Counted from the stretch's first letter, positions 1-39,816 are shown. The stretch: 64,000 nucleotides of DNA from Thermoplasmata archaeon (GCA_023269235.1 JAHFTW010000001.1:43548-107547), one strand, 5' to 3'. The notes: a model not told the origin generated them from the letters alone. Made by a program: numbers and translations.

Positions 1-1101
1 TCCAGCGACGACATGCTGTGGGTGGACCCTGACACCGACCGCGTCTTCGCGGATTTCATGACGGGCCTCTACTGCAGCAAACTGTTCTACAGCGACAACG
101 AGGGCGCGAGCTTCACACCGAGCCCCTTCGACTGCGGCGTCCCCGTCAACGACCACCAGAAGGTCATGACCGCGCACTACGGCCCCGACCTCCCCAAGCC
201 CTCGAATCCGATCTACCCGAACCTCGTGTACTACTGCTACAACAAACTCCTCGCCAGCGACTGCGCCATCAGCGTGGACGGCGGCCTGACGTTCCAGTAC
301 GACCGCCCGACCACCATCATCGACCAGGGCGGCGAAGGCGGCACGACCCCGGTGCTGATGGGCCCGTGCGGAGGCATCAACGGCCACCCCGCCGGTGCCC
401 CCGACGGCACGCTGTACCTCCCCATCAACAACGGCTGCCCCGGCCCCGTCGTCATGGTCACGACCAACAACGGTCTCACCTGGACCGTGCGCCAAGGCCC
501 GACCGCGCACGGCGCCGAGGAGATTGACCCCGAGATCACCGTCACGCCCGACGGCACGGCGTACATGCTCTACCGCGGCACCGACCACCTCGCTTACCTC
601 ACGCGCTCGCACGACCGTTTCGCCACCTGGGAAGGCCCTTGGCTCGTGAGCCCGCCCGACGTCCGCTCCACGGTCTTCGCCGGCCTCACCTCCGGCGACG
701 ACGGGCGCATCGCGTTCAGCTTCCTCGGCACGCGCGACTCCGCGGAGGATCCGTCCAACGCCCCGAACGCGACGCACTGGAACCTCTACTACGGCACCTC
801 CCTGGAGGCCGAGGCGGAGCGCCCCCTGTTCCGCGTCGTGCAGGCCAACGCCGACCTGGACCCGGTGCAGATCGGCTGCGTCTGGCTCGGCGGCGGCGGG
901 AACCCGTGCCGCAACATGCTGGACTTCATCGACATGGCGCGCACCCCCGAGGGGCGGCCCGTCGTCGTCTTCTCCGACGGCTGCACCGCAACCTGCGACG
1001 GCAACGCGACCGCGACGAACCTGAACTCGCGCGGCCGCACAGTCACCATCGCGGTGCTCGACCAGGGGCCCTCGCTCGTGGCGGCGACTGGGCGCTACTG
1101 A
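1..1101 (+). CDS. BNR/Asp-box repeat protein (sialidase-like glycosyl hydrolase fold), 5'-partial
   Basis: Frame is open to base 1. Repeated Asp-box-like motifs (SVDGGLTF, TTNNGLTW, SDNEGASF) typical of BNR repeats. Confidence 0.55.
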   Translation, partial: SSDDMLWVDPDTDRVFADFMTGLYCSKLFYSDNEGASFTPSPFDCGVPVNDHQKVMTAHYGPDLPKPSNPIYPNLVYYCYNKLLASDCAISVDGGLTFQYDRPTTIIDQGGEGGTTPVLMGPCGGINGHPAGAPDGTLYLPINNGCPGPVVMVTTNNGLTWTVRQGPTAHGAEEIDPEITVTPDGTAYMLYRGTDHLAYLTRSHDRFATWEGPWLVSPPDVRSTVFAGLTSGDDGRIAFSFLGTRDSAEDPSNAPNATHWNLYYGTSLEAEAERPLFRVVQANADLDPVQIGCVWLGGGGNPCRNMLDFIDMARTPEGRPVVVFSDGCTATCDGNATATNLNSRGRTVTIAVLDQGPSLVAATGRY

Positions 1102-1859
1102 GGTGGCTGCGGCGGCTGCGGGGGCATCTGCCCCGCGGCTTCGGCGGCGGCCAGCCTGGCCTTCTCTTTCCGGTGCCCGACGTAGCCGAGCGTGAGCGCG
1201 ATGGCGGTCACGGTGAGGCTGAAGCCGACGGGGAGCCACCAGGGCCAGCGCAGCTCCTCGCGGAAGACGAAGGAGTAGAGGACCGTCCACCCGGCGGCCG
1301 TGACGAAGACGGCGCCCGTGACCGCGGTGATGATCTGGCGCGGGCGCAGGCCGGTGATGCGGCCGATGGCGATGCCCAGGAGCGGCGAGTTGAACGCGAA
1401 GGGGACGATGAGGTAGAGGAACAATCCCCACGGGCCATACTTGTCAATCTTCTTGCGGTGCTTCGCGGCGCGCAGTTGCGCGGAGCGCACGAAACTGGAG
1501 AAGTAGCCCTTGCCGCGCTCGACGCCGTCGAAGGCCATGTGCACGAACGGGTACGCGAAGAAGACCGCGGCGAGGTCGGTCGTGAAGAGGAAGGCGCCAA
1601 TCAGCCACGGGTTGCCGCCGGCGGCGATGCCGGTCGGGATGCCCGCCTCCTTGCCGGCCGCGAAGAGCGTGCCGACGGCGAAGAGCATGGGGCCGAGCTG
1701 GCCCTGGGCCTTCCAGAACGCGCCCGCGAGCATCGCGGCGGAAAGGAGCGCCGCGCAGGAGGCCGCGACGGGGAGCCACTTCACGGCGGGCGGGAGCGGT
1801 GGCCGCGGCGGCTTGGCGGACGGGCTCGGGAGGTTGGGGGCGTGGGGGAGTTCGGTCAT
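1095..1859 (-). CDS. Polytopic membrane protein, unknown function
   Basis: Multiple hydrophobic helices. The first ATG follows a TTG listed in the ORF track. Lies 6 nt downstream of the TrmB stop, so probably co-transcribed. Confidence 0.55.
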   Translation of the reverse strand: MTELPHAPNLPSPSAKPPRPPLPPAVKWLPVAASCAALLSAAMLAGAFWKAQGQLGPMLFAVGTLFAAGKEAGIPTGIAAGGNPWLIGAFLFTTDLAAVFFAYPFVHMAFDGVERGKGYFSSFVRSAQLRAAKHRKKIDKYGPWGLFLYLIVPFAFNSPLLGIAIGRITGLRPRQIITAVTGAVFVTAAGWTVLYSFVFREELRWPWWLPVGFSLTVTAIALTLGYVGHRKEKARLAAAEAAGQMPPQPPQPPQ

Positions 1860-1865
1860 CAAGTC

Positions 1866-2747
1866 TCAAGGGGCGCGGACCTTCCCCACGAGGCGGGCGA
1901 GGCGGCGGCCGCCCCGGGTCCCTAGCACCTTGCGGAGCCAAGCCGGGTCGAGCCGTCCGTCGCGCCACAGCGTCTCGAACTTGCCTTCGAGGTCCTGGGC
2001 GAAGGCACGGTCGTCCAGGTGGACCACCGCGAAATAGCTAGTGGGTTCGAGCGGATTGCGCACGCCGAGCACGACGCGCTCGCCGTCCAGAAGGGAGAAC
2101 GGCAAGGTGTCGGTGGCGGTGAGGCGGACCTGGAGCCGGTCGCCGAGGTAGGGCAGGGTCGCCTCCAGGACCTGCTCGACATAGGGCGTCCCGAGGAGGT
2201 AGTCCACGTCCCTGCTGCGCAGCAGGATGCGGGTGCGCACGCCGCGGTCCACGGCCTGCCGGAAGGCGTCGAAGAGCGCCAGGTCGTCGTCGCGCAGGCG
2301 CTCGAACGTGAGGTAGGCGTCCACCTGCTTGCGTGCTTCGTGCGTCGCCTCGATGAGGAACTCGCGCGACGCGTCCTCGCCGAGCCGCACGCCGTACAAG
2401 GTCGAGCCTGGCACGGTCTGCGGCTGCAGGCGGGAGAGGTCAGCCTCCAGCTGCGCGGCCTGCTGGGAGAGCCCTTTCTCCTCCTCCTGGAGGCGGCGTT
2501 TTCCGGTGGCGAGGAGGCGCTGCGGGATGGACGCGGCGGGGGCGGCCGCGAAGAGCTGGGGGCGGCCGGCGCGGGCCGTGGCGAGGCCGCGCTCGACGAG
2601 GGCGTGGAGGGTGTCGTACACGCGGCCGAAGGGGATGCCGGCTTCGCGTGACAGGTCGGGGCCGCTGCGCTCGCCGTGGCGCAAAAGGTGGGCGAGCGCC
2701 TTGCTCTCGTATCCATTGAGTCCCAGGGCCTCGAGCCGGTCGAGCAT
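1866..2747 (-). CDS. trmB: TrmB-family transcriptional regulator (HTH plus C-terminal TrmB domain)
   Basis: N-terminus MLDRLEALGLNGYESKA... is the canonical TrmB wHTH start. The longer ORF (to 2765) begins with TTG. Divergent to the isoprenoid operon. Confidence 0.7.
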   Translation of the reverse strand: MLDRLEALGLNGYESKALAHLLRHGERSGPDLSREAGIPFGRVYDTLHALVERGLATARAGRPQLFAAAPAASIPQRLLATGKRRLQEEEKGLSQQAAQLEADLSRLQPQTVPGSTLYGVRLGEDASREFLIEATHEARKQVDAYLTFERLRDDDLALFDAFRQAVDRGVRTRILLRSRDVDYLLGTPYVEQVLEATLPYLGDRLQVRLTATDTLPFSLLDGERVVLGVRNPLEPTSYFAVVHLDDRAFAQDLEGKFETLWRDGRLDPAWLRKVLGTRGGRRLARLVGKVRAP

Positions 2748-2815
2748 GGATACAACCTCTTGCAAGTTGTGCCAAGTCGGGATGCTTCAAGAACCCCTCC
2801 TGTGTCGAAGCGGAC

Positions 2816-4174
2816 ATGGAACGGGGCCACGTCCGGGCCGTCCTGGGGCGCCACGCCCTGCCCGGGCCGGGCCACGCCTGGTCGGATGCCGACCCGACCC
2901 GTCTTCTCGATGCCTGGGTGCTCGACGACCCGCTCCAGGAGCTCCAGCGCGCCTCAGGCGAGTCCCGGCTGCGCGAGCTGGGCCACGACTACGCGGTGCT
3001 GTGGGCGCGCACGTTTCGCACCCTTGTGCGCCACCTGCGCGGCCGCCCCGAACGCGCCCTGAGCCTCTTCGTCGCCGAGGTGTACCCCTTCCTGCGCGGC
3101 GACCGGCTCGCCGCCCGCCTCGAGGAGGCCCGCCCTGGCGCGGCGCGCGTCAGCCTTGCGGGAGGCCTTCCGCCCGCCTACCTCGCCGGCCTCGTCGAGG
3201 GCTTCGTCAACCTCTCCGGCGCCGAGGCGCAGGCCACCGCGCTTCCGGCCCCCCTGGATGCCCCCGCCACGCTTGTCCAGGTCGCGTGGCGCCTGCGTCC
3301 CGCCGAGCGCCTGTCGCGCTTCGTCCAGCAGGCGGCGCTGCTGCGCTTGCCGCTCCTCTCCTGCGCACTGCTGGGCGCCCTGCTCGGCGTTGCTCTCGCC
3401 TTCCACCTCGCGGGCCCGCTGGAGCCGTGGCGCGTCGCCGCCGTCCTGGCGGGCGCCGTCGCCGTCCAGGTGGGCTCCAATGCGTGGCATGACCTCCACG
3501 CGCGCCATCCGGCGGGCATCCTCGGCGCGCCGCGCCTCGGCCGCCCGGCCCTCTGGCGCCTCGTCTGGGCTGGCTACCTCCCCGCCGCCATCCTCGGCGT
3601 GGCGCTCGCCTGGAACAACGTGGTCGTGCTCCTCTTCGCCTTCGCGGGCGTCGCGGTGAGCGTCCTCTTCGCCCGCTTCCGCGGCGCCGGCTGGGGCCCG
3701 GTCCTCGCGGGGCTCACCTACGGCCCGCTCCTCGCGGAGGGCGCGCTCCACGCGGTCCTCCCCGGCGCGCTGGACCACGTCGGCCATCTCGCCGCCGTCC
3801 TGTGGACCCTCCCCGTGGGCGCGCTCGCCGCCGCCATCCTCTACCTCGACGACCTCGCCGACCGGCCCCTCGACCAGGCGGGCGGCCACCGCACGCTTCT
3901 CGTCCGCCTGCCCCAGGCCGGCCACTGGCTTGGCCTCGCCTCGCTGCTCCTGCCCGCGACCGGCCTCCTCGCCGCCCTCGTGGCCCTCGCCGCGCCGGGC
4001 CCGCTCGCCCTCCTCGTCGCGAGCCTCGTGCTGGTCCTCGCCGCCGTCGCCATCCTCCTTCGGGTGCGCGGCCACCTCGACGACCCGCACGCCCTCTCCC
4101 CCGACCGCGTCGCCGCCGTCGCCCTCCACCTCGCCGCCTCCGCCGTCACGATCCTCGCCCTGGTGCATCCATGA
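2816..4174 (+). CDS. UbiA-superfamily prenyltransferase-like membrane protein with ~180-aa soluble N-terminal domain; first Asp-rich motif degenerate
   Basis: 7-8 TM helices. Second UbiA motif intact (YLDDLADRPLDQAGGHRTLLVRL, MenA-like). First motif position reads N-A-W-H-D-L-H-A-R instead of NDxxDxxxD. Stop overlaps the next start (ATGA). Confidence 0.6.
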   Translation: MERGHVRAVLGRHALPGPGHAWSDADPTRLLDAWVLDDPLQELQRASGESRLRELGHDYAVLWARTFRTLVRHLRGRPERALSLFVAEVYPFLRGDRLAARLEEARPGAARVSLAGGLPPAYLAGLVEGFVNLSGAEAQATALPAPLDAPATLVQVAWRLRPAERLSRFVQQAALLRLPLLSCALLGALLGVALAFHLAGPLEPWRVAAVLAGAVAVQVGSNAWHDLHARHPAGILGAPRLGRPALWRLVWAGYLPAAILGVALAWNNVVVLLFAFAGVAVSVLFARFRGAGWGPVLAGLTYGPLLAEGALHAVLPGALDHVGHLAAVLWTLPVGALAAAILYLDDLADRPLDQAGGHRTLLVRLPQAGHWLGLASLLLPATGLLAALVALAAPGPLALLVASLVLVLAAVAILLRVRGHLDDPHALSPDRVAAVALHLAASAVTILALVHP

Positions 4175-5139
4175 GCCACCCCGTCACCGCCGTCTTCCAG
4201 CCCGCGACCGTCGCCCTCCTCGCCGACGTGGAGAAGCGCCTCCTTGCCCAAGCGGCTAGCCGCGACGCGCGCCTCGCATCCTGGACCGCGCAGTCCCTGT
4301 CTGCCGGCGGCAAACGCGTCCGCCCGCTCTTGCTGCTCACCGCGTTCGAAGCATGTGGCGGCACCAGCCTGGGCCCGACCGCCCAGCATGACGCGGTGGA
4401 CTCCGCCGTCGCCTTGGAGCTCGTCCATACCGCGAGCCTGGTCCACGACGACATCATGGACGACGCGAGCGAGCGCCGCGGCAAGCCGAGCATCGTCGCC
4501 GCGCACGGCCGCGACGGCGCCATCCTGGTCGGCGACTACCTCTTCACGCAGGCCTTCGCGCTTGCCGCGACGCTCCCCAAGGAGGCGATGGCGATCACCG
4601 CTGACGCCTGCCGCCGCCTCTGCGAAGGACAGCTGCGCGAGCAGGAGCTTCTCGCGTCGGGCAAGCCCGACCGCGACGCGTACGTCGCTGTCATCCGCGA
4701 CAAGACTGCCGCCCTGCTCGCCGCCGGTTGCGCCATTGGAGCCACCATGGCGCGCGCCCCGGACGCGACGGTGCAGGCGCTCTCCCGCTACGGCGACGCC
4801 ATCGGCCACGCCTTCCAGGTCCTCGACGACCTGCTCGACGTCGCGGGCGACCCCGCGTGGACCGGCAAGCCCGCCGGCACCGACTTCGTGGCGGGGACGA
4901 TGACGAGCCCGTACCTCAACTTCCTCGAACGCGGCGGCCGCCTGCCCGCGCGCCGCGACCCGGCCGGCTTCGCGACAGTGCGCGAGCAGCTCTTCGAGTC
5001 CGGCGCCGTCGCCGCGAGCCAGCTGGAGGCCTCCGCGTACACGCAGGCTGCGCTCCTTGAGCTGGCTGTACTCCCCGCGTCGCCGGCCCGTGACAGCCTG
5101 GAGAAGCTCGCGGAGCTTCTGATGGAGCGGGCAGCGTGA
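4171..5139 (+). CDS. trans-polyprenyl diphosphate synthase (IspA/IdsA family)
   Basis: FARM/SARM motifs: LVHDDIMDDASERRGKP and FQVLDDLLDVAGD. Start chosen at MSHPVTAV. The longer ORF from 3802 is an Arg/Pro-rich out-of-frame overlap of the upstream gene. Confidence 0.85.
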   Translation: MSHPVTAVFQPATVALLADVEKRLLAQAASRDARLASWTAQSLSAGGKRVRPLLLLTAFEACGGTSLGPTAQHDAVDSAVALELVHTASLVHDDIMDDASERRGKPSIVAAHGRDGAILVGDYLFTQAFALAATLPKEAMAITADACRRLCEGQLREQELLASGKPDRDAYVAVIRDKTAALLAAGCAIGATMARAPDATVQALSRYGDAIGHAFQVLDDLLDVAGDPAWTGKPAGTDFVAGTMTSPYLNFLERGGRLPARRDPAGFATVREQLFESGAVAASQLEASAYTQAALLELAVLPASPARDSLEKLAELLMERAA

Positions 5140-7826
5140 GCCGCGAGGCCCGCGTCCCATCCGCCCCCGCCCCCACGCCCAAGGAACCCCGCTCGCCCGT
5201 CTGGCTGCGCGAGGCGCTCGGCCGCATCAGTCGCGGCTCCGCGCGCCACCGCGTCGCCGTGCTCTCGCTGAGCGCCCTCGCGGTCGTCCTGCTCAGCTTC
5301 GGGCTGCCGCAGCTCCGGTTCGAGGACAACCCGGTGGACGCGATGCCCACGGGCGACCCGAACACGCTCGCCGCGCTCAACCTCACCCACACCTTCCCGG
5401 GCGCGGCGTACGCAAGCCCCGTCTTCGTCGGAGTGGACCCCGCGAAATGGGCCGCCGCCGACGCCAAGCTTCCCAACCGCGTCCCCCTGGGCCGAATCCC
5501 TGGGGCGCAGGGGACGCCGGCGGCCAACGACCTCGTGGGTCTGCTGAACCAACTTCTCGGCATGGGGCAGAACCCGTCCGGCGGCGAGACGCCCAAAGGC
5601 CCGGAGCCGGTGCCTGGCGCGCTCAACATCACGGACGAAGTGTACATGCGAGGGCAGAACGAACTGTTGGGCTACCTCCAGGCCCGCGTGCCGGAGCTGA
5701 AGTGGGCCATCACGCTCGAGTCGCAAGTCCGGCTCGTCAACTACACGAACACAGGCGTTCCTGGCCCCGGCGTCGGCCCCACCGCGAAGCCGCTCCGGTT
5801 CCCCGACAGCGCCGCGTTCGCCATGCCGGGAACCGACTTGCAAGGCGAGCAGCAGTACGCCGCCGACTGGACGGGCTACTTCGTCGCCTCGCCCGCGTCG
5901 GTGCGCTCCATCGTCAGCAAGGACTGGTCCAGCACGCGCCTCGCGTACCTCTTCGAGCCGGACGGCAAGTCGCTCGCCGAGGTCGGCCAGTCCTTCCACG
6001 ACGCCGTGGAGTCCTACAAGGCGGAGGTCGCGCGCTGCGATGCCGGCGCGTCGTGCAGCCTGGCCTGGAACGTCTTCGAGCGCGACTCCATCCTCGTGGA
6101 TGCCCGTGCGCCCACCGCCGCCGCTGCCCATTTGTCGGAGACCACCAAGCAGGACGTCTTCCTCCTCGCCCCCATCGCCGCCCTGTTCGTCGGCGCGTGT
6201 CTCCTCCTGCAGTTCCGCCGCCCCGGCACGGTCGCCGCGATGGTCATTCCGCTCGGCCTCTCCGGCCTTGGCGTGCTTGGCGCCTTCGGCCTGCTCGGCC
6301 TGCGCATCCAGTCCGCGAGCCTGCTGGTGTTCCCGGTCCTCATCGGCACCGGCATCGACTTCGGCATCCACATGGCGGCCGCGTTCCACAACGCGCGCCG
6401 TGACGGCGCCGACCGGTTCGAGGCGAGCTTCGCCGCCGGCCAGCACGCGGGCCGCCCGCTCCTCATCGCCACCGTCACGACCCTGGTGGACATGCTGTTC
6501 CTCATCCTCGCGCCCAACCAGCTCCTGCGCGAGCTGGGCTTCGCCATCCTGCTCGGCCTCACGCTCATGCTGGTCGTGAGCCTCACCGCGCTCCCCGCCG
6601 CGCTCAGCTTCTGCGCGACCCCCCGGCGGCGGGAGGCGCCGCTCGACCGCGTCCTTGTGCGCGGCGCGCGGTTCTGGGGCACGCACCGCGTCTTCGGCGG
6701 GGCCGTCGTGCTCGCGACCGCCGCGGCCGGCATCCTTCTCCTGCCGCAGCTCAACACGCTCGTCATCGGCACCCCCGCCGCGTTCTTCCCCGCCGACGAC
6801 CCGCAGCGCCACGACTTCGAGGCCTCCAACGCGCGCTACTTCCGCTCGCAACAAGACTTGGTCACGAACGTCCTCGTCTTCGAGGGCGACCTGACGACGC
6901 CGGCCGCCATGGACGAGCTCCTCGACATGGAGCAGACGGTGAAACGGCTCGACTTCGTGCGGCCCGATTCCGCGGTCTCGGTCCATTTCGCCATGAACGC
7001 CTGGATCCAGGTCCGCCAAGGGACCGCCGGCGTCGCCCCGGTCCTCGCGCAGGAGGCGCTCGCCCCGGGAAGCACGTTCCCGCACACGCAGGCCGACATC
7101 AAGGCCGTCCTCGACGAGATGTTCCAGACGCCGCTCGCCAACTACATGTCCTTCTTCATCGCGAAGGACCGCTACGACATCGGCGTCATGCTCGTCGAGA
7201 TCGACCAGCCGTCCGACTTCAACGCCCTGACGCCGCAGTGGGACGCGCTGCAGAAGACCCTCGCTGACGTGCAGGCGCGCCACCCCGACGCCCACCTGCG
7301 CGTCCATGTGTCCGGCGCGAGCGCCATCGCCTACCTCTTCACCGCGCGTGAGCTCCCCTACCTGCAGATCGCCGGCTACATCGGCATCGCCGCGACGGGC
7401 CTGCAGATTCTCCTGTTCCGGCGCTCGCTCCGGGAAGCCCTCATCGTGAGCGCCTGCGTCCTCGTCGCCGGGGCGTGGTGGGGCGGCCTGCTGGCCCTCT
7501 CCGCCATCCCGCTCTCCATCGCGCTCGTCGTGCCGCTCGTCATCCTCGAGGCCATCGGGTCCGACTACACGATGCACCAGCTCTTCGCCATCGCGGAGGA
7601 AGGCCCGCGCGCCTGGGACACCGTGGGCCGCGCCATCGTCTATTCCGCCATCACGGACCTGGGCGCGTTCCTGGTCTTCGCGTTCATGCGCTACGGCCTC
7701 CTGCGCCAGGCCGCCCTCGCCACCGCCTACGTCCTCTTCTGCGCGCTCGTCGCGACGCTGGTCCTCGTGCCCGTGCTCTCGCGCCGCAAGGAACTTCCCC
7801 CCGCCCCCGCTGGAGCCCCAACATGA
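5136..7826 (+). CDS. MMPL/RND-superfamily (SSD) membrane transporter, predicted lipid exporter
   Basis: Two 6-TM bundles, each preceded by a large extracytoplasmic loop; ~890 aa. Start overlaps the upstream stop (GTGA) and stop overlaps the downstream start (ATGA). Confidence 0.75.
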   Translation: MSREARVPSAPAPTPKEPRSPVWLREALGRISRGSARHRVAVLSLSALAVVLLSFGLPQLRFEDNPVDAMPTGDPNTLAALNLTHTFPGAAYASPVFVGVDPAKWAAADAKLPNRVPLGRIPGAQGTPAANDLVGLLNQLLGMGQNPSGGETPKGPEPVPGALNITDEVYMRGQNELLGYLQARVPELKWAITLESQVRLVNYTNTGVPGPGVGPTAKPLRFPDSAAFAMPGTDLQGEQQYAADWTGYFVASPASVRSIVSKDWSSTRLAYLFEPDGKSLAEVGQSFHDAVESYKAEVARCDAGASCSLAWNVFERDSILVDARAPTAAAAHLSETTKQDVFLLAPIAALFVGACLLLQFRRPGTVAAMVIPLGLSGLGVLGAFGLLGLRIQSASLLVFPVLIGTGIDFGIHMAAAFHNARRDGADRFEASFAAGQHAGRPLLIATVTTLVDMLFLILAPNQLLRELGFAILLGLTLMLVVSLTALPAALSFCATPRRREAPLDRVLVRGARFWGTHRVFGGAVVLATAAAGILLLPQLNTLVIGTPAAFFPADDPQRHDFEASNARYFRSQQDLVTNVLVFEGDLTTPAAMDELLDMEQTVKRLDFVRPDSAVSVHFAMNAWIQVRQGTAGVAPVLAQEALAPGSTFPHTQADIKAVLDEMFQTPLANYMSFFIAKDRYDIGVMLVEIDQPSDFNALTPQWDALQKTLADVQARHPDAHLRVHVSGASAIAYLFTARELPYLQIAGYIGIAATGLQILLFRRSLREALIVSACVLVAGAWWGGLLALSAIPLSIALVVPLVILEAIGSDYTMHQLFAIAEEGPRAWDTVGRAIVYSAITDLGAFLVFAFMRYGLLRQAALATAYVLFCALVATLVLVPVLSRRKELPPAPAGAPT

Positions 7827-9319
7827 CCCACCCGCAGACCGCCGCGACCGCACCCGCCTGGTTCGATGACACGCCCGAGCACCCCCTCCTCGTCCGCCAC
7901 CCGTCGGCACCGCTCATCGAGACGCGCGTGAGCAAGGTCATCAAGGGCACCCTCGACGGCATCTTCCAGCACTTCTGGGGCTCGGAGCCGCGCCTTCGCC
8001 TCGAGCTGCACAAGGACCACGTCAAGCAGTACCACATCCACCGCGAGACGCCCGACTCCTTGGAGTACGAGTTCGTCTTCGAAGCCTACGGCACCCGCAA
8101 CTGGGGCCTCGCCGTCGAGGTCGCGCAGCGCCCACACCGGATTGACGTCGAGGTCAAGCAGGGCCCCATCGCGGGGCAGACCGTCACCACGCTCTTCCGG
8201 GAGGTCCCGGGCGGCATCGAGGTCACGCAGGTCAACCGCGTCTGGCCCGGCGGCAACGAGCTCGCGGTCAAGATCATGGGCGGGAAGCTGAAGGCGCGCC
8301 TCGCCGCGCTCGCCGGCGTCCACCTCGAGCAGCACCGCCACGACATCGAGGGCCTCGAGCGTTTCGTGGACCGCTTCAGCCAGGAGCACCAGGAGAGGAT
8401 GGAGCACGCCAAGGTCAAGCCCGTCGTGGACCTCCTCAAGACGACGCGCGCCATCACGCTGCCCATCATCCTGCTCCCCGTCATAGCGGCCGCGGCGGTC
8501 GCGCACGGCCAGGGCGTCTTCGATGGCGCCGCGCTCGCCCTCACGCTGCTCGGCTCCGCCGCCGCCCTGCTGGGAGCCAACCTGCTCAACGACCTGTACG
8601 ACTTCAAGGGCGGCGCCGACCAGGCGGCCCGCACCATCCCAGGCGCCATCGAGACCGGCTCCGGCGCGTTCACCGAGGGCCGCTGGAGCCAGCGCAAGGG
8701 GTGGGCCATGACGGCCCTCCTCGCGCTCGTCGCGCTCGCCTGCGGCCTGGTCCTCGCGGCCACCTCGACGCCGCTCGTGCTCGCCTACGCGGTCGCCGGC
8801 GCCGTCATCTCGTACGTGTATGTCGGTCCGCCTTTCCCGCTGGCCTACAAAGGCCGCGGCCTCGGCGAGGCGTCCATCTTCCTCGCCTTCGGGGTGCTTC
8901 CCGTCGCGGGGGCCGTCCTCGCGCACGGCGGCGTCCTCACGCCCACGACGTGGGCGGTCGGCGTCCTGTTCGGGTTCACCAGCACGCTCGTGCTGTACCA
9001 CCACCACTTCCTGCACTGGCAGGCTGACCTCGCGGCCGGCAAGGGTTCCCCCGTCGCGCTGCTCGGCCCTGAGCGCGGCTCCTGGGTCGGCCTCGCGCTC
9101 GCGTTCTCCACGAGCATCGCGGTCGCGCTCTGCGTCCTTGCCGGCTTGGTCCCCGTCTGGAGCCTGCTCGCCGCGCTGCCGCCGTTCCTGCTCGTGGCGC
9201 CGCACGCGCGCATCCTCGACGGCGACCAGTCGCCTCCAGCGCGCACCAAGGTCGCGGGCGCGGCCTTCGGCGCGATGGCCCTGTCAGGGCTCGTCCTCGC
9301 CGTCACGCTCTGGTTCTAG
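7823..9319 (+). CDS. Fusion: N-terminal SRPBCC/Bet v1-like putative ligand-binding domain plus C-terminal MenA-like UbiA prenyltransferase
   Basis: C-terminal 8-TM domain with NDLYDFKGGAD (MenA-type first motif) and ADLAAGKGSPVALLG. The ~200-aa N-terminal soluble domain looks SRPBCC-like by eye. Confidence 0.65.
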   Translation: MTHPQTAATAPAWFDDTPEHPLLVRHPSAPLIETRVSKVIKGTLDGIFQHFWGSEPRLRLELHKDHVKQYHIHRETPDSLEYEFVFEAYGTRNWGLAVEVAQRPHRIDVEVKQGPIAGQTVTTLFREVPGGIEVTQVNRVWPGGNELAVKIMGGKLKARLAALAGVHLEQHRHDIEGLERFVDRFSQEHQERMEHAKVKPVVDLLKTTRAITLPIILLPVIAAAAVAHGQGVFDGAALALTLLGSAAALLGANLLNDLYDFKGGADQAARTIPGAIETGSGAFTEGRWSQRKGWAMTALLALVALACGLVLAATSTPLVLAYAVAGAVISYVYVGPPFPLAYKGRGLGEASIFLAFGVLPVAGAVLAHGGVLTPTTWAVGVLFGFTSTLVLYHHHFLHWQADLAAGKGSPVALLGPERGSWVGLALAFSTSIAVALCVLAGLVPVWSLLAALPPFLLVAPHARILDGDQSPPARTKVAGAAFGAMALSGLVLAVTLWF

Positions 9320-9325
9320 CGCGGT

Positions 9326-9666
9326 CTAGCGGCCGTTCGCGGCCCAGGCGGCGAGCGCCGCGCTCGCCTCGGCCCAGGACTGGTCAAGAGCGGCCAGCTG
9401 GTCCAGTTTTGGGAAAGCTCCGCCCCGAGCGGCCTGCTCGATGGCGAGCGCCTGCTCGCGCACACCCTCGAGGCCGAACTGCGCCGCGTTCCCTTTCAGG
9501 GTGTGGTACGCGCGCTGCAGGCTCGCGATGTCCTTCGCCTTCAGGGCGGCCCGGCCGCTCGCGAGCAGCGTGGGGCCTTCCGTGAGGAAGAGGTTGACCA
9601 GCTCCACGACGGCGGCGCGGTCATCGCCGAGGTCGGACAGGAGGGTGCGAAGGGCTTGGTCGGCGT

Positions 9667-9670
<4 letters not shown>
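9326..9670 (-). CDS. HPt (histidine phosphotransfer) domain protein
   Basis: YHTLKGNAAQFGL contains the HxxKG phosphoacceptor motif. Start ATG overlaps the HK stop (ATGA). Confidence 0.7.
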
Positions 9671-13695
<4,025 letters not shown>

Positions 13696-13799: not shown

Positions 13800-14960
13800 A
13801 TGAATGGGTCGCGCGCAATGCGCGTCGTTGTCGCCCTCCTTCTGACCACCTTGGTCCTGGCCGGGTGCGCCTCGACCCCGCCCACGGCGGACCCGAGCTC
13901 TTCGGCCCCTGGCAAGCAGCTTGACCAGGGCGTCAATAAGCTCGACGTGCCGACCCTGCCCGCCACGCCCCCGGCCGCCGGGGAGCGCACTCTCGCGAAG
14001 GTTCCGCAGTGGAAGCTTGGCGAATACTGGACCTACCACATCGTGGATGGGTTCACGGGCCACGAGTACGACGTCACGCGCGTCGTGGCGGGCACGGACG
14101 GCGCCAACTACCTCGTCGGCTTCCCGCTCGAGGCCTTCAGCAACGACATCCTCATCTTCCACATCCCGGGCTACGGCGACGTCAGCCAGACCGACCTCTC
14201 GTTCGAGGTCCACGACAAGACCTTCGCGCCGCTCAAGTTCCCGTTGGAGGGCACCAACCAGTGGCCGACCCAGTTCGAGGGCCGGGACGGCACCGTGACC
14301 GTCGAGAAGGCGGAGGGCGGCAAGGCCGACTTCAGCGCCTCCGGCAGCGGCTGGACGATGACCTACACCTACGACGCCGAGGCGGGCGAGGTCACCAAGC
14401 TGAACTACCCCGGATACGCCAGCTACGAAGTGACCAAGCACGGCTACAACTACGCCGGCCTTGTGCGCGTCCCGCACGCCCACGACCTCATCTTCTTCAA
14501 CGGCCGCGTCGCGGGCGCGTTGGACGTCAACCTCCAGCCCTCCACCAGCCCGACGTCGGAGACCGTGCAGATCGCCCCTGGCTACGACCACCTCGCCTTC
14601 ACCATCATCGTCGGCAACCTGTTCAACGTCCTCCCCGGCACCACGATGGCGAACCCGTCGTCGGAAGGCTACTACTCGGAGAAGGTCACCTCCCCGAACG
14701 GCACCGTGTTCCAAGTGGTCTCCACGCCGGCGGACCCTGCCCTGAAGCTGCAGTTCTTCGGCACCGGCGAGCCCACGGGAACGTGGACGCTCGAGCACAT
14801 CGCCGCCGGGCCGGGCCAGGCGTTCGTCGAGGGCATCGGCTACCACTCCATCGACGTGAGCCTCCCAAGCGGCTGCGTCGTCCAGAGCGTCAACGCCGGC
14901 CACCACGGCGCCCCCTGCAAGGTCACGGCCGCCCAAGCGGGCGACGCCAAACCCTTGTAG
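13800..14960 (+). CDS. Secreted lipoprotein, unknown function
   Basis: Signal peptide with lipobox LVLAGC. No recognised domain. Confidence 0.6.
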   Translation: MNGSRAMRVVVALLLTTLVLAGCASTPPTADPSSSAPGKQLDQGVNKLDVPTLPATPPAAGERTLAKVPQWKLGEYWTYHIVDGFTGHEYDVTRVVAGTDGANYLVGFPLEAFSNDILIFHIPGYGDVSQTDLSFEVHDKTFAPLKFPLEGTNQWPTQFEGRDGTVTVEKAEGGKADFSASGSGWTMTYTYDAEAGEVTKLNYPGYASYEVTKHGYNYAGLVRVPHAHDLIFFNGRVAGALDVNLQPSTSPTSETVQIAPGYDHLAFTIIVGNLFNVLPGTTMANPSSEGYYSEKVTSPNGTVFQVVSTPADPALKLQFFGTGEPTGTWTLEHIAAGPGQAFVEGIGYHSIDVSLPSGCVVQSVNAGHHGAPCKVTAAQAGDAKPL

Positions 14961-24847: not shown

Positions 24848-26509
24848 GTGCAGGACCTGCGCGTGGCCCAGGCCTTGGCGGCGGCCGCCTACGACGCGTG
24901 GCGCGGCATCCAGGCCCGCAGCGACCTGCACGAGAAGGTCGGCAAAGGCGCGGGCGGCAACGCCACGAGCCGCGCCGACGCGGTCCTGGAGGCCGCCATC
25001 TTGGAAGCCGCAAAGCCGTTCGGGATGAGCGTGCTCTCGGAAGAGGCCGGCTTCGTGAAAGGGGACGGCCCGCTCCTTGCGGTCGTGGACCCGCTGGACG
25101 GGTCCCGCAACGCCGGCCGCGGCATCCCGTTCCACTGCACGAGTGTTGCCGTCGGCCCCGCGACCGGCCGCCTCGGCGACCTACGCGCCGGTGTCGTGCG
25201 CAACCTCGTCACCGGCGACCTGTACGAGGCCACCAAAGGGGGCGGCGCGCTTCTCAACGGCAAGGCCATCGCCCCGCGGCCGTTCGACAGCAAGGAGTTC
25301 CTCCTGGGGACCATCGCCGACTACGCCGAGGCCGAGATCGAGGAGGCACACCGACGCCCCGGCCGCCACATCCGCGACCTCGGCTCGGCCGCGCTTGAGA
25401 TGTGCCTTGTCGGCACTGGCGCCCTCGACGCCTTCCATGTCCGCAAGCCGTGGCTGCGGGTCATCGACATCGCCGCCGCCACGCTTGTCGTGCGCGAGGC
25501 CGGCGGCCAGGTCCTCGACCCGGCGACGGGCCGCGACCTGGACATGCCGCTCAACCTCGAGGTCCGCAGCGGCATCCTCGCGACGCACAGCGCGGGGGCC
25601 CGCAAGGTCCTCCTCGGCTCCGTGACGCCGAAACCCATGCCGGGCCTCGCCGGCGCTCCCTCCAATCCGAGCGGACCCCTCACCTGGGCCCTCGTCGGGA
25701 AGGCCGGCATCCCGCACGTCCGCTCCGAATCGGTCCGGTTGCGCGAGAACCTGGAGAAGAAGGGCCAGGCCGTCCTGCTGGAGACCGACCTCGCGAAGGC
25801 GCTCGGCGGCAAGGCCCACTCGCTCGCCGAGCTCGACCAGCTGGCCGACCTCTTCCTCACCGTCGGCGGCGACGGGACCATCCTGATGACGCAGGCCGTG
25901 ACCGACAAGCCGGTCTTCGGCGTCAACGCTGGAGCCATCGGGTTCCTCGCGGAGGTGGAGCCGCCGCAGGCGGTCGCGGCCATCGACCAGATCCTGCGCG
26001 GCGACTACCGCGTCGAGGAGCGCGACAAGCTCTCCGCGTGGCTCGACGGCAAGCCGCTGCCCGACGCCACGAACGAGGTCACCCTGCAGACCTCGCGCAT
26101 CGCCAAGCTCATCCGGTTCCGCATCAGCGTGAGCGGGGAGGTCCTGGACACACTGCGCGGCGACGGCATCATCGTCAGCACCGCCACCGGCAGCACCGGC
26201 TACGCGATGAGCGTCGGCGGCCCCCTCGTCCACCCGCTCGTGCACGGCACTGTCCTCGCGCCCATTGCTCCGTTCCGCCTCTCCGCGCGGCCATGGGTCG
26301 TCCCGTCGGAGTCCGTGATCGAGCTGACATTGGAGGACCGCGAGTCGCAGACGGGCACCGGCCAGGCGCGCGTCGTGGTGGACGGCCAGCATGGCTTCGA
26401 CGTCGAGCCCGGCCAGGTCGTGCGCGTGGCGCCCTCCACCCGCAAGGCGCGTTTCATCCGGCTCGGCCCCGGCTTCTACGAGCGTGTGCGCTCCAAGCTG
26501 ACGCGGTGA
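24848..26509 (+). CDS. nadK: Bifunctional NADP phosphatase (IMPase/FBPase fold) / NAD+ kinase
   Basis: N-terminal IMPase motifs (VVDPLDGSRNAGRGIP). C-terminal NAD kinase GGDGT (TVGGDGTILM) and NEVTL. Same architecture as the M. jannaschii fusion. Confidence 0.85.
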   Translation: MQDLRVAQALAAAAYDAWRGIQARSDLHEKVGKGAGGNATSRADAVLEAAILEAAKPFGMSVLSEEAGFVKGDGPLLAVVDPLDGSRNAGRGIPFHCTSVAVGPATGRLGDLRAGVVRNLVTGDLYEATKGGGALLNGKAIAPRPFDSKEFLLGTIADYAEAEIEEAHRRPGRHIRDLGSAALEMCLVGTGALDAFHVRKPWLRVIDIAAATLVVREAGGQVLDPATGRDLDMPLNLEVRSGILATHSAGARKVLLGSVTPKPMPGLAGAPSNPSGPLTWALVGKAGIPHVRSESVRLRENLEKKGQAVLLETDLAKALGGKAHSLAELDQLADLFLTVGGDGTILMTQAVTDKPVFGVNAGAIGFLAEVEPPQAVAAIDQILRGDYRVEERDKLSAWLDGKPLPDATNEVTLQTSRIAKLIRFRISVSGEVLDTLRGDGIIVSTATGSTGYAMSVGGPLVHPLVHGTVLAPIAPFRLSARPWVVPSESVIELTLEDRESQTGTGQARVVVDGQHGFDVEPGQVVRVAPSTRKARFIRLGPGFYERVRSKLTR

Positions 26510-30179: not shown

Positions 30180-31028
30180 TCAAGCCTTGGTGATGGTGTA
30201 GTCGGGTGGGGGCGGGGCGACATAGAAGAGGCTCGCGAAGGCGTCCACTTGCTGCTCGAACGCGAACCCGGCGCCAGCGGCCACCTCGTTCGCGTCGTTG
30301 TTGGGGTCCACCCGCACGGTGAGCTTCATCACGCCGCCGGGGGTGTAGTATTTCTGGGCCGTCGCCTGGGGGACGGTGAGCCGCAGCGGCGACGTGGAGA
30401 CCCCCTCGGCGAGGATGACGTTGAGCTGGCCCAGGTTGAGGGTCTCCAGGCGCGCGCTGAGCGCGGACTCCAGCGGGGACTGGGCCGTCCAGGCCAGCTC
30501 GAGGACGACGCCCGCCAGGTCCGGGCCGACGGCGATCTCCCATTGGTCCCTGCTCGCGGATTCGATGCCCGTTCCTGAGCTGCAGTCGTACGTGGAGTTC
30601 TGGCCGGACACCTCCGTCGCGACCTGGCAGGCGATGAACAGGGTCTGCGGGAGCTTCTGCATGAAGGGGGTCTTCGACGAGATGGGCTCCATGGTGAAGT
30701 TCAGCCGCACCGTGGACTGGGTCGGGACGCTGACCTGCTTCGACAGGGGCGTGAAACCATCCTTGGTCGCTACGAGGAGCAGAACGCGGTCCACGGGCAA
30801 GTCGGTGAACGCGTAGTGGCCGCTCGCGTCCGTCGTCGCCGTGGCGTTGGTGTCCAGCACCCGCACGTGAACGTCCTTCATCGGGACGATGCCAGGATCC
30901 AGGACGTAGCCGGACAGAAGCGGCGTCCCGGGTGGGACCCCTGCGTCTGACGCGCCTGTGCCCGAGTCGGTCTGGCTACAGCCCGCCAACAGCATCAGGG
31001 CGGCGGCCGCGAGGGCGGTCGGTCTCAT
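30180..31028 (-). CDS. Secreted lipoprotein with CarbopepD_reg-like domain (paralog)
   Basis: Lipobox LLAGCSQ, then GYVLDPGIVPMKDVHVRV...TDASGHYAF. ~35-40% identical by eye to the previous gene. Start overlaps the M14 stop. Confidence 0.6.
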   Translation of the reverse strand: MRPTALAAAALMLLAGCSQTDSGTGASDAGVPPGTPLLSGYVLDPGIVPMKDVHVRVLDTNATATTDASGHYAFTDLPVDRVLLLVATKDGFTPLSKQVSVPTQSTVRLNFTMEPISSKTPFMQKLPQTLFIACQVATEVSGQNSTYDCSSGTGIESASRDQWEIAVGPDLAGVVLELAWTAQSPLESALSARLETLNLGQLNVILAEGVSTSPLRLTVPQATAQKYYTPGGVMKLTVRVDPNNDANEVAAGAGFAFEQQVDAFASLFYVAPPPPDYTITKA

Positions 31029-35824: not shown

Positions 35825-36583
35825 ATGGATGACCGCCCCTTCGCCGGCCGCACCGCCCTGGTGACCGGCGCCGCCGCCCGCCTTGGCCGCATCATCGCGC
35901 TCCGGCTCGGCACGCTCGGGGCGAGCGTCGTCGTCCACCATAACGCCAGCACCGTCGGCGCCTACCAGGTGTGCTCCGAGCTGCAAAGCCGCGGCGTCGA
36001 GGCGTTCGCGGTCCCGCAGGAGCTTGGCGACCCGAACGGGCCCGCGAAGCTGATGGCCGCCGCGCGCAAGGCCGCCGGCAAGCCGCTGGACTTCCTGGTC
36101 AACAACGCGGCCACCTACCCGAAGGCAAAAGTGACCGACTTGAGCTGGGACAAGCTCACCGACAGCCTGGCCGTCAACGCGTGGGCGCCCTTCGAGCTGA
36201 CCCGCCTCTTCGCGGCGCAGGCCAAGAAGGGCGGCGCCGTGGTGAACCTGCTCGACACGCGCATCGCCGACTACGACTGGGACCACGTCGGTTACATTCT
36301 CTCCAAGCACATGCTCGCCGAGATGACGCGTCTCTGCGCGGTGCAGTACGCCCCGGATGTGCGCGTCAACGCCGTCGCCCCAGGCCCCATCCTGCCCCCG
36401 GTCGGCGAGGCTGAGGCGACCCTCGACCGGTTGAGCCGCCACCTGCCCCTGCGCACGACGCCGACGCCCGACGACGTCGCGGACGCGGTCCTCTACCTTC
36501 TCGGCTCGCGCGGCGTGACCGGCGACATCCTGCACGTGGACTCCGGCCGGCACCTCGGCAAGGCCGTGTACGACCCGAAGTAG
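35825..36583 (+). CDS. Short-chain dehydrogenase/reductase (SDR)
   Basis: TGAAARLG Rossmann motif, NNAA, and the Y-x3-K catalytic pair (YILSKHML). Confidence 0.85.
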   Translation: MDDRPFAGRTALVTGAAARLGRIIALRLGTLGASVVVHHNASTVGAYQVCSELQSRGVEAFAVPQELGDPNGPAKLMAAARKAAGKPLDFLVNNAATYPKAKVTDLSWDKLTDSLAVNAWAPFELTRLFAAQAKKGGAVVNLLDTRIADYDWDHVGYILSKHMLAEMTRLCAVQYAPDVRVNAVAPGPILPPVGEAEATLDRLSRHLPLRTTPTPDDVADAVLYLLGSRGVTGDILHVDSGRHLGKAVYDPK

Positions 36584-36655
36584 CCGACGCCCACGTCCTC
36601 GGCCCCACCGGTCCGGCATCCTCCACCTTATGCGGCAAGCCCCGCATCGCGGCGC

Positions 36656-37129
36656 GTGGTCTCCGTCGGCCAGCCCCTGCCCGCCTTCTCCGTCCTCGCC
36701 GCCGTGAGCGGACGCACCGTCTCCCCCGCCCTCTTCGCAGGAACCGGCGTCCTCGTCGTGCACGGTGCCAAGACCGCCGACGCCGCGAAGGAGGTCAGCA
36801 AGGCCGTGCGCACGAAGTGGCCGCAGCCCGGCGCCGTCGCGCTCGCCACCGTCGTCGACCTGCGCGCCTTCGCCGGCATCTGGAAGAAGGTCGCGGAGGC
36901 GCAGCTCAAGTCCACCTACGAGAAGCTCGCCGCGAAGGCGAAGGAGGCCGGCATGGATCCCGCCGAGCAGGTCCTCATCGGCACCGATTGGGATGGGGCC
37001 GCAAGCCAAACCCTCGGCGTGGAGAAGCCGGACGAGGAGGCTGTCGCCTACGTCCTCCAAGGCGGCAAGGTCACGGCCGTCTGCAAGGGCAAGGAGATGG
37101 CGGCCGCCGTCGTCGCGGCGCTCACCTAG
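36656..37129 (+). CDS. Hypothetical protein, possibly redoxin-like fold
   Basis: N-terminus VGQPLPAFSV resembles peroxiredoxin/TlpA starts but no CxxC motif was seen. GTG start. Confidence 0.35.
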   Translation: MVSVGQPLPAFSVLAAVSGRTVSPALFAGTGVLVVHGAKTADAAKEVSKAVRTKWPQPGAVALATVVDLRAFAGIWKKVAEAQLKSTYEKLAAKAKEAGMDPAEQVLIGTDWDGAASQTLGVEKPDEEAVAYVLQGGKVTAVCKGKEMAAAVVAALT

Positions 37130-37203
37130 GGCCAGGCTGAACGGGTCCACGCGAACGGAATCGGTCGGGGCCGGCGCTTCCGTTCGGGACTGCGCCTTGC
37201 GGC

Positions 37204-38394: not shown

Positions 38395-38396
38395 GA

Positions 38397-38785
38397 TGGC
38401 CGACGTCGAGTCGCCGCGCCCCGTCATGAGCCTCAAGGAGCAGCGCGAGGAGCTGCGCAACGGCAACGTCGTCGGCTACCACTGCAAGGCGTGCGGCGAG
38501 GACCGCTTCAGCCCCATGCTGCGCTGCCCGAAATGCAAGTCCGGCAAGGTCGAGCGGCGCACGTTCAGCAAGACCGGCACCGTCGTCACCTACACCGTCC
38601 AGTCCGTCGCCTCCGAGCAGTTCCTCAACGAGACGCCGTTCGCGTTCGCCATCATCAAGCTCGACGACGGCCCCACCGTCTCCGGCTGGATTCCTTGGAT
38701 CGCGAAGCCAAAGGATTTGCCGATGGGCCAGAAGGTCGAGTACGTCGCGAGCTACAAGCCCGGAATGATGTTTGAAAAGCGTTAG
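38397..38785 (+). CDS. DUF35 OB-fold/Zn-ribbon protein (thiolase/HMG-CoA synthase scaffold subunit)
   Basis: CKACGEDRFSPMLRCPKCKSGK Zn ribbon plus an OB-fold. Begins 3 nt after the thiolase stop. Confidence 0.8.
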
Positions 38786-38835
38786 TTCGCCCTTCGCACC
38801 AATTCGCTTAAGTGAGCCCCTTCCGGGTCCTGCCC

Positions 38836-39810: not shown

Positions 39811-39816
39811 GCCGCG

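Follow-up and report, generated by a model that had tools for sequence, protein, structure and literature searches.

A conserved archaeal locus combines two UbiA-fold proteins, a polyprenyl diphosphate synthase and an MMPL/RND-type transporter in two separable, translationally coupled gene pairs

This report concerns four adjacent plus-strand genes, termed G1 to G4, in a 64,000-nucleotide stretch of DNA (the window) from a Thermoplasmata archaeon (GCA_023269235.1, JAHFTW010000001.1:43548-107547). The window has a GC content of ~70% throughout and belongs to a metagenome-assembled genome (MAG) of an uncultured member of the Thermoplasmatota. The four products form an isoprenoid module of two UbiA-fold paralogs, a trans-polyprenyl diphosphate synthase and an MMPL/RND-type transporter, an assignment made in an earlier note on this DNA and now borne out by Pfam and profile comparisons. 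The operon architecture is real, conserved and undescribed; its new elements are two domain fusions and a coupled RND pump, whereas the combination of a MenA/UbiA protein with a polyprenyl synthase is a known theme. The earlier note saw one obligate functional unit; the locus is instead made up of two separable translationally coupled pairs, G1-G2 and G3-G4. Our leading reading, which is tentative and which we hold at somewhat less than an even chance, is of a TrmB-regulated locus for a long-chain prenylated (quinone-like) lipid, in which G2 would make the chain, G4 attach it and G3 relocate the product, with G1 as a non-canonical partner of G2. The genes and their domains are as follows.

2816-4174, plus strand: G1, weak UbiA-like membrane protein with an N-terminal soluble domain
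2816-3331, plus strand: N-terminal cytoplasmic domain of G1, residues 1-172, H-NOX/V4R/Bet3 fold by AF2 and Foldseek
3338-4174, plus strand: membrane domain of G1, MenA/UBIAD1 fold, motif I degenerate and motif II intact
4171-5139, plus strand: G2, trans-polyprenyl diphosphate synthase
5136-7826, plus strand: G3, MMPL/HAE3-type RND transporter
7823-9319, plus strand: G4, SRPBCC domain fused to a MenA-like UbiA domain
7823-8422, plus strand: N-terminal SRPBCC (helix-grip) domain of G4 by AF2 and Foldseek
8435-9319, plus strand: MenA/UBIAD1-like domain of G4, with motif I at 8579-8620 and a His-type motif II at 8996-9052

Stop and start codons overlap at all three junctions (ATGA at 4171-4174 for G1/G2, GTGA at 5136-5139 for G2/G3 and ATGA at 7823-7826 for G3/G4), on which the open reading frame (ORF) listing and a direct reading of the sequence agree, and the motif strings quoted earlier for G1, G2 and G4 are all present exactly as given. 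Profile searches of the kind that the earlier note had suggested placed polyprenyl_synt (G2), MMPL (G3) and UbiA (G4) above their cutoffs and UbiA in G1 below it.

The four-gene arrangement is not due to chance. The order, with a TrmB-type gene pointing away from G1, G2, G3 and G4, is kept in every related locus that is long enough to show it (L001-L008, L012 and L015), and the ATGA overlaps of G1/G2 and G3/G4 are retained even where the proteins of relatives share 42-68% identity. In L001 and L002 the G2/G3 junction has opened to a gap of 20-28 nt; the G1/G2 and G3/G4 overlaps persist. Two further loci, L017 and L018, from the MAGs GCA_034667725.1 and GCA_035526765.1, have the divergent TrmB gene and G1-G2 with its ATGA overlap, and no G3 or G4 within 10 kb; their identity to the window is 53% for G1, 76-80% for G2 and 71% for TrmB. 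By G1 identity they belong to the subclade nearest the window lineage, and since four-gene loci occur in more distant lineages, loss or relocation of G3-G4 appears to be the more parsimonious explanation of their condition. By a crude estimate, made by matching contigs by size, about half of those G1 clusters that lie on contigs of at least 14 kb have no G4 on the same contig. G3 and G4 clusters were found on contigs of equal size in more than 30 cases, and in this clade each gene was seen only together with the other. An ATGA joins the end of G3 to the beginning of G4 in each of the four orthologous operons for which gene coordinates were read (window/L005-L006, L001, L002 and L003/L004), and in the remaining loci G3 likewise immediately precedes G4. 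A more distant SRPBCC-UbiA protein, P0235 (360 bits), has no adjacent MMPL gene, and none of G1, G2 or G3 occurs in the ~4.6 kb upstream that its 6.6-kb contig shows. It is on L017, L018 and P0235 that the idea of one obligate unit founders.

The families differ in their rates of change and share a narrow range. There are ~62 full-length members of the G4 family, with identities of 60-84%, before a cliff to matches at E about 1e-13, and ~58 members of the G3 family, with identities of 50-83% and all from Thermoplasmatota or metagenomes, before a drop to 28-29%. The G1 family is more divergent (40-70% identity), and across loci G1 diverges faster than its neighbours (42-70% vs 61-81% for G4). 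Two peptides from the SRPBCC domain, compared with 185,579 GTDB species representatives, identified nine loci only, all in Thermoplasmatota MAGs from groundwater, sand or soil; a metagenome scan with the G1 alignment gave two loci only, too few for statistics. The close relatives L002, L007 and L015 come from assemblies of groundwater of the Hainich well H32. We found no published description of these domain fusions or of this operon in the literature, which agrees with the earlier note, whose author knew of no described archaeal system of this arrangement.

The enzymatic identity of G2 is clear. As previously proposed, it is a trans-polyprenyl diphosphate synthase, matching Pfam polyprenyl_synt (PF00348) at E 4.9e-58 (196.7 bits vs a cutoff of 27) and carrying both DDxxD motifs, the first aspartate-rich motif (FARM) as DDIMDD at 4447-4464 (residues 93-98) and the second (SARM) as DDLLD at 4825-4839 (residues 219-223). 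Its best PDB matches, all full-length, are decaprenyl (3mzv, 4e-45), octaprenyl (4jxn) and nonaprenyl (9imq) diphosphate synthases, and it reached no NCBIfam equivalog cutoff. Bulky aromatic residues at positions -5 and -4 before the FARM limit the products of trans-isoprenyl diphosphate synthases (trans-IPPS) to C15-C20. The chain-length region of G2, ALELVHTASLVHDD, is identical in eight orthologs and has Ala at -5 and Ser at -4 (HTASLVHDD). Because these residues are small and the best PDB matches are long-chain enzymes, we predict an all-trans product longer than C20, probably C35-C50.

The N-terminal domain of G4 had been guessed to be SRPBCC-like, and the structural model bears this out. 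The AF2 model of residues 1-204 (pLDDT 81.6) has the helix-grip SRPBCC fold, and Foldseek gave 138 PDB matches at E<=1e-3, the top 50 of which are all SRPBCC proteins. The best were TTHA0849 and TcmN ARO/CYC (E about 1e-6), followed by PR-10, PYL and START proteins; more than 100 SRPBCC chains were matched with a probability of 1.00 and E of 1e-6 to 1e-4. By sequence, the N terminus of the window protein gave no SRPBCC match, and Polyketide_cyc2 was detected in 3 of 14 family members, with E down to 1.4e-5. The domain is unusually polar. It has 23 invariant residues, five His included, and those found in 35 of 35 sequences comprise H50, H63, D65, H66, K68, Y70, E75, Y82, E87, Y89 and R92, and further along E99, R106, E110, Q119, Q136, N138, R139, W141, H167, Q170 and H171. 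Such a polar set points to catalysis, to a metal site or to the binding of a particular polar ligand, and not to the passive binding of lipid.

The membrane domain of G4 (residues 217-476) matches Pfam UbiA at E 2.6e-21 (76.5 bits vs a cutoff of 34.2), and UBIAD1 was the best match in a profile search of the PDB (E 4.4e-6). Motif I (N256-DLYDFKGGAD266) is intact: N253, N256, D257, D260 and D266 are all conserved in 35/35 sequences, as is the glutamate of the GLGE motif, E349. Motif II reads H398-WQADLAAGKGSP and has the family form Y-HHH-F-L-H-W-x-x-D...GK-x-SP, in which H393-395, W399, D402 and K407 are found in 35/35 and H398 in 34/35; the DxxxD position is occupied by H398-x3-D402. The earlier note had taken this Asp-poor motif for a lesion, complementary to one in motif I of G1. 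We compared the membrane domain exhaustively with 1.84 billion representatives (4911 hits). Its closest relatives (155-219 bits) are stand-alone or PNPOx-fused proteins with the motif xHHFxHWxxD...GK-x-TP, and the form xHHFxHWxxD...GK is common to ~20 other MenA-like clusters from Bacteria and Archaea. Named members of this subfamily are Paenibacillus WP_046681332.1 and a Ktedonobacteraceae protein, both unfused and labelled by NCBI only as 'prenyltransferase'. Two proteins that pass the cyanobacterial/plant MenA model (cutoff 225), P0065 (382 bits) and P0337 (265 bits), have FCSHFHQVxED at this position, with Q/H instead of Asp; the classical MenA P0363 has NNLRDVASD. P0065 is the nearest non-family match and sits beside menF, menC and menE. 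Because the same form occurs in ~20 clusters and a similar form in MenA proteins that pass the model, the His-containing, Asp-poor motif II is, on these alignments, the normal state of G4's branch and not a lesion, and a canonical DxxxD motif II is by the same comparison not required for membership in that branch. Hence, of the two departures from the canonical Asp motifs, the one in motif I of G1 stands as a degeneration, whereas the one in motif II of G4 is typical of its subfamily.

A structural study of AfUbiA placed the two Asp motifs on the walls of the same central cavity, within one protomer, and found that N68A and D72A abolish binding of Mg-geranyl diphosphate (Mg-GPP) while D198A weakens it 45-fold and D202A 21-fold (PMC4106721). 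G4 is probably catalytically active, since motif I and E349 are invariant, the His-type motif II is typical of the subfamily, the family is 61-84% identical and, in AfUbiA, motif I is indispensable while motif II mutants merely weaken Mg-GPP binding. Fusion to other domains recurs among the relatives of G4. A PNPOx/F420-type split barrel is fused to a His-motif MenA-like domain in P0238, P0243, P0244, P0248 and P0253 (L024 8001-9398), and P0253 adjoins a gene for an ECF riboflavin S-component; the genomic contexts of the bacterial subfamily members P0390 and P0253 are uninformative. Among the distant matches is P0067, a 692-aa Bac_luciferase (PF00296)-UbiA fusion.

The relation of G1 to this fold is weaker. 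The window protein matches Pfam UbiA (PF01040) over residues 185-418 at E 0.0021 (17.9 bits), below the gathering cutoff of 34.2; for most members of the G1 family, PF01040 is among the precomputed matches. The G1 and G4 family membrane-domain profiles are homologous by hhalign (probability 97.8%, E 9.5e-13), and the best PDB profile match is UBIAD1 (8djk, E 1.4e-6). Motif I (3467-3505) reads N222-A-W-H-D-L-H-A-R, with H225 (26/33) at the position of AfUbiA N68; residue 229, at the position of D72, is hypervariable, there is no third Asp, and the GLGE glutamate is replaced by P295 in 33/33. Motif II (3842-3898; YLDDLAD...GGHRTL) is intact, with D346, D349, D353 and R359 all found in 33/33 and its DxxxD formed by D349-x3-D353. 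The model of residues 1-172 (pLDDT 94.8) matched H-NOX and Bet3 structures in Foldseek at E 1e-4. The likeness to H-NOX is at the level of fold only, and a heme-binding identity was rejected, since helix 78-94 has no invariant His and the YxSxR propionate motif is missing; Pfam found no V4R (PF02830) in the domain. It has an Arg-rich invariant set (R65, R75 and R94, with R97 and R101 nearly invariant). Judged by the models, both UbiA-fold paralogs carry cytoplasmic small-ligand domains, and these are of two different folds. Since motif II and the N-terminal domain stay invariant despite fast divergence, the conservation pattern indicates that G1 is under selection. Of the two paralogs only G1, as aligned, lacks the essential motif-I ligands, and it most likely does not carry out canonical ionisation of a prenyl diphosphate.

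G3 matches Pfam MMPL (PF03176) at E 7.1e-20 (71.7 bits vs 20.5) and does not reach the cutoff of the NCBIfam HAE3 model TIGR00921 (109.3 bits vs 351.9); weaker, sub-threshold matches were to HpnN, MmpL3, BstA and Patched (E 2e-7). The proton-relay residues in transmembrane helices (TM) 4 and 10 are intact, the motifs GTGIDFGIHM (TM4; D408, 6357-6359) and AIGSDYxxH (TM10; D810/Y811, 7563-7568) being invariant in four orthologs. The assignment as an MMPL/RND-type transporter therefore holds, and the sequence fits a functional RND transporter driven by protons. The nearest outgroup MMPL proteins are P0220, encoded next to CcmE and CcmC, and P0219, on a short contig; neither bears on the link to UbiA. 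P0220 (L021 523-4936; 28% identity, with weak Patched and Sterol-sensing matches) lies directly after CcmE and CcmC-like cytochrome c maturation genes.

Upstream of G1 lie a divergent regulator gene, which the earlier note had recognised as TrmB-type and Pfam now confirms, and two elements of the intergenic spacer.

1866-2747, minus strand: TrmB-family regulator, Pfam TrmB plus DUF7436, called start ATG 2747 with a possible extension to TTG 2765
2750-2771, no strand assigned: dyad ATACAACC-N7-AGTTGTG (core ACAAC-N9-GTTGT) in the 68-nt TrmB/G1 spacer
2784-2793, plus strand: box of lower GC content, GCTTCAAGAA (in relatives CCTTAATGAA), 23-32 nt ahead of the start codon (ATG) of G1

The regulator combines a TrmB winged-helix domain (PF01978; E 5.7e-15, 55.4 bits vs 25.6) with a C-terminal DUF7436 (E 7.7e-15, 55.6 bits vs 34.2), and in every relative, with 57-80% identity, it points away from G1. 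It scores 24-39 bits against the equivalog models of sugar-sensing TrmB, TrmBL1 and TrmBL2, whose cutoffs are 500-650, so a sugar effector need not be assumed. The dyad is invariant in an alignment of five diverged loci. It has one exact match in the window vs 0 expected from shuffles, and exactly one in each of nine related loci, always in the same TrmB/G1 spacer; L018 has the variant GCAACC-N7-GGTTGT, and in L017 (81 nt read) the right half AGTTGTG only is present. These observations make it a probable operator. The less GC-rich box keeps its position in the five-locus alignment and in L018, and may serve as the TATA box of a leaderless mRNA for the operon. Starting 3 nt past the TrmB stop is a gene for a Sm_multidrug_ex membrane protein (PF06695, Pfam E 1.5e-13; 1095-1862, minus strand), which, given the shared strand and the 3-nt gap, is probably co-transcribed with TrmB. 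It is found behind TrmB in L005-L007, L017 and L018 and not in L001-L004, and because it is conserved in part of the clade only, its membership in the module is uncertain.

Starting from the gene order, overlaps, domain folds, motif states, conservation and separability described above, we propose a scheme that extends to chain length, acceptor class, the role of G1, the transported substrate and regulation. Pair A (G1-G2), which is also found alone, would be the core. The soluble G2 would supply the long all-trans polyprenyl diphosphate, and G1 may dock G2 at the membrane, take up its very hydrophobic product, or gate that product in response to a ligand, possibly via the cytoplasmic H-NOX/V4R-type domain. 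Pair B (G3-G4), strictly linked and apparently lost from one subclade, would act on the chain: G4 may transfer it onto an aromatic acceptor, the fused SRPBCC domain may bind, and possibly modify, the aromatic acceptor or the product, and G3 may move the prenylated lipid out of the inner leaflet in a proton-driven manner. The TrmB/DUF7436 protein would control both divergent promoters via the ACAAC-N9-GTTGT dyad. A long-chain prenylated aromatic lipid, as suggested earlier, stays the most sensible guess for the product. Cultured Thermoplasmatales make menaquinone-type quinones (PMC6770870), and among archaea the classical Men pathway has been found in Halobacteriaceae only (PMC3914697).

Several points weigh against this proposal. 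The benefit of an exporter is hard to see in an archaeon that probably has a single membrane. G4 is under every curated MenA cutoff, so that its acceptor may not be a naphthoquinone precursor, and no men, mqn or other head-group genes, and no crt genes, occur within the 64-kb window. The top NCBIfam scores of G2, which stay below cutoff, go to short-chain IdsA and to a model of an encapsulin cargo. Gene neighbourhood that is conserved within a single order-level clade may in part mirror shared ancestry, as with the syntenic lipoprotein gene described below. It is also possible that G1 is still catalytic, for example via its invariant Arg cluster.

The best surviving alternative, which we regard as fairly unlikely, is an ordinary menaquinone tail-attachment operon, with G4 as the MenA of the lineage, G2 as the side-chain synthase, and G1 and G3 as accessory proteins or passengers. 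MenA and UBIAD1 are indeed the best family matches of G4 and G1, G2 appears to be long-chain, P0065 is a genuine cyanobacterial MenA with men genes beside it, and IMG labels both G1 and G4 'DHNA octaprenyltransferase'; the menaquinone (MK)-type quinones of cultured Thermoplasmatales (PMC6770870) point the same way. However, neither protein reaches any MenA cutoff. For G4 the scores are 107.6 bits vs 225 for TIGR02235 (menA_cyano-plnt, its best NCBIfam model), 86.7 vs 264 for NF004751 and 44.9 vs 102.15 for TIGR00751; G1 scores 27.7 and 25.5 bits against the cutoffs of 225 and 264. Were this an essential respiratory step, the absence of G3-G4 from close G1-G2 relatives would be surprising, unless these genomes have another copy at a different place. 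In addition, no described MenA is coupled by an invariant ATGA to an RND pump or has a highly conserved polar SRPBCC domain. Nor are men or mqn genes nearby, either in the window or in the 10-kb flanks of related loci. Identities as DGGGP synthase, heme O synthase or chlorophyll synthase were rejected for G4, which gave no match to CtaB or DGGGPS models and only marginal ones to ChlG (E 5.5e-8 in NCBIfam and 0.004 in the PDB). A carotenoid C50 elongase was likewise rejected, as crtB, crtI and cyclase genes are absent and G4 resembles MenA.

It is also conceivable, and in our judgement unlikely, that G1 is itself an active non-canonical prenyltransferase, its motif II and Arg-rich N terminus binding the diphosphate, that transfers the G2 product to a ligand bound by the H-NOX/V4R domain, and that G4 performs a second, independent prenylation. 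Mg-independent aromatic prenyltransferases that use basic residues do exist, in the ABBA and DMATS families. The persistence of G1-G2 as a self-standing translationally coupled pair would fit such an activity, as would the invariance or near-invariance of D346, D349, D353, R359 and the five N-terminal Arg residues. However, the positions whose substitution abolishes Mg-GPP binding in AfUbiA (N68A and D72A; PMC4106721) are not conserved in G1, the GLGE acid is replaced by Pro, and the TM domain of G1 is the fastest-evolving of the four proteins.

Still less probable, we think, is that G3 is a general hydrophobe or amphiphile efflux pump with no specific prenyl-lipid link, its adjacency to G4 being historical. 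Export of drugs or amphiphiles is a frequent annotation of HAE3/MMPL members, the genes next to the nearest outgroup MMPLs are unrelated, and for another, unrelated HAE3 gene of an archaeon a clustering with aromatic-stress genes has been described (bioRxiv 10.1101/2025.10.20.683597). Yet the G3/G4 ATGA overlap in 4/4 operons read, with G3 directly upstream of G4 elsewhere, the same taxonomic range and identity cliff of the two families, and their joint absence from L017 and L018 all tie G3 to G4. Finally, an obligate G1:G4 heterodimer, with motif II of G1 and motif I of G4 forming one active site, is highly improbable even though the motif states are reciprocal at family level and both genes share one operon in most members, because both motifs face the cavity of a single protomer (PMC4106721), motif II of G4 has the usual form of a large subfamily, stand-alone proteins among them, and is similar to that of bona fide cyanobacterial/plant MenA, G1 occurs without G4 (L017 and L018) and the G4-like P0235 without G1-G3 in ~4.6 kb upstream, and the overlap-coupled partners are G1-G2 and G3-G4, not G1-G4.

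Comparison with described systems places the proposed lipid locus among familiar parts in an unfamiliar arrangement. With MenA/ABC4-type enzymes (TIGR02235, TIGR00751) and human UBIAD1 it shares the nine-TM UbiA fold and, in G4, the fully conserved motif I N..NDxxDxxxGxD; MenA proteins passing TIGR02235 also have a His-containing, single-Asp motif II, and UBIAD1 is the best PDB match of both paralogs. It differs in that G4 scores under half of each curated cutoff, bears SRPBCC at its N terminus as well as an invariant HHHxxHW cluster, shares translational coupling with an RND pump gene and has no adjacent men genes, and in that G1 is without motif-I ligands and carries an H-NOX/V4R-fold domain. 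Proteins of the xHHFxHWxxD MenA-like subfamily have motifs I and II of the G4 type, and several have an N-terminal soluble cofactor or ligand domain. However, these proteins are fused to a PNPOx/F420-type split barrel, not to SRPBCC, or have no fused domain at all, and no MMPL, polyprenyl synthase or G1 gene was nearby in the two contexts seen. Like the hopanoid exporter HpnN and mycobacterial MmpL exporters, G3 is an RND/MMPL pump with a TM4/TM10 Asp-Tyr relay encoded inside an isoprenoid or lipid biosynthesis operon; unlike them, it scores far below cutoff and its host is an archaeon that presumably has a single membrane. The carotenoid operon crtE-cg0722-crtBIYeYfEb of Corynebacterium glutamicum reportedly combines a prenyl diphosphate synthase (CrtE), an MMPL-family protein (cg0722) and a UbiA-family lycopene elongase (CrtEb). 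Here, in contrast, there is no phytoene synthase, desaturase or cyclase, G4 is MenA-like and not CrtEb/LyeJ-like, and G2 appears to be long-chain.

Partners without catalytic motifs accompany catalytic isoprenoid enzymes in the HepS/HepT heptaprenyl diphosphate synthase, with the small subunit of geranyl diphosphate synthase (GPPS) and in NgBR/DHDDS. They offer an analogy, through tight co-expression, for G1 with G2 or G4. In all of these, however, the two subunits have the same fold and make up a single synthase, whereas here a membrane UbiA-fold partner would join a soluble trans-IPPS, a pairing of which we know no description. In the complex of UBIAD1 with HMG-CoA reductase (8djk/8djm), a MenA/UBIAD1-type protein likewise partners a sterol-sensing-domain module, which is RND-related, and G3 matches Patched while its outgroups match Sterol-sensing. 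That complex is regulatory and eukaryotic, and its partners are not co-encoded.

The surroundings of the operon are varied. Between G4 and a lipoprotein gene, at 9326-13695 on the minus strand, are genes for an Hpt protein and a 1342-aa MASE1-PAS-HisKA-HATPase-REC hybrid histidine kinase; this block also occurs in L007 and, on the opposite strand, in L018, is absent from L001-L004 and looks like a variable insertion in a syntenic block. The lipoprotein (13800-14960, plus strand; 386 aa) has a signal peptide and a LAGC lipobox and found nothing in Pfam or PDB profile searches. Its invariant His/Cys motifs (RVPHxHDL, EGIGYHSID, LPSGCV and HH..C) suggest an extracytoplasmic metal site. Homologs lie downstream in all loci, and the lipoprotein was considered as a sixth member of the module and rejected, its presence in L018 (59% identity), which has no G3/G4, indicating synteny and not partnership. 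A gene for a geranylgeranyl-reductase-like FAD protein (FAD_binding_3/Lycopene_cycl; L001 15855-17195, L002 14787-16082 and L003 14533-15753) is found in several relatives together with Tsr3 and PTH2, at a distance of 4-7 kb on the downstream side of the operon, and is not in the first 20 kb of the window. Its proximity is likely synteny, and it could be related to saturation of the side chain. The rest of the window is housekeeping, with beta-oxidation, CDC48 and type IV pilus/archaellum-like genes. The beta-oxidation-type cluster at 35825-44684 comprises a short-chain dehydrogenase, thiolase, acyl-CoA dehydrogenase and 3-hydroxyacyl-CoA dehydrogenase. A 553-aa inositol monophosphatase-NAD kinase fusion is encoded at 24848-26509 (plus strand), and an 823-aa ORF at 31025-33496 (minus strand) has a strong coding signature (GC3 0.95) and no Pfam match. 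Scans for tRNA and Rfam families found none in the window; a bacterial-type terminator scan, of a type uninformative for archaea, found none after G4.

In summary, the IMG label 'DHNA octaprenyltransferase' on G1 and G4 should be corrected, as neither reaches any MenA cutoff. We know of no archaeal HAE3/MMPL transporter with an assigned function or substrate. If the proposed prenylated-lipid locus is as we describe, it would provide a concrete candidate substrate class for these transporters, an instance of a UbiA-fold protein kept as a non-canonical partner of a polyprenyl diphosphate synthase, and a His-type MenA-like subfamily that repeatedly gains N-terminal domains, SRPBCC in Archaea and PNPOx/F420-type presumably in Bacteria. 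A more far-reaching version, an archaeal lipid system of an undescribed kind, seems to us unlikely. In it a ligand-sensing pseudo-prenyltransferase (G1) would take up or gate what the long-chain polyprenyl diphosphate synthase makes, the SRPBCC-fused MenA-type enzyme with its invariant His cluster would produce a new prenylated aromatic or quinone-like lipid, and a dedicated HAE3/MMPL pump would bring this lipid to the cell surface; if true, an archaeal HAE3 transporter would for the first time have an assigned substrate, and no non-catalytic subunit of UbiA fold would have preceded G1.

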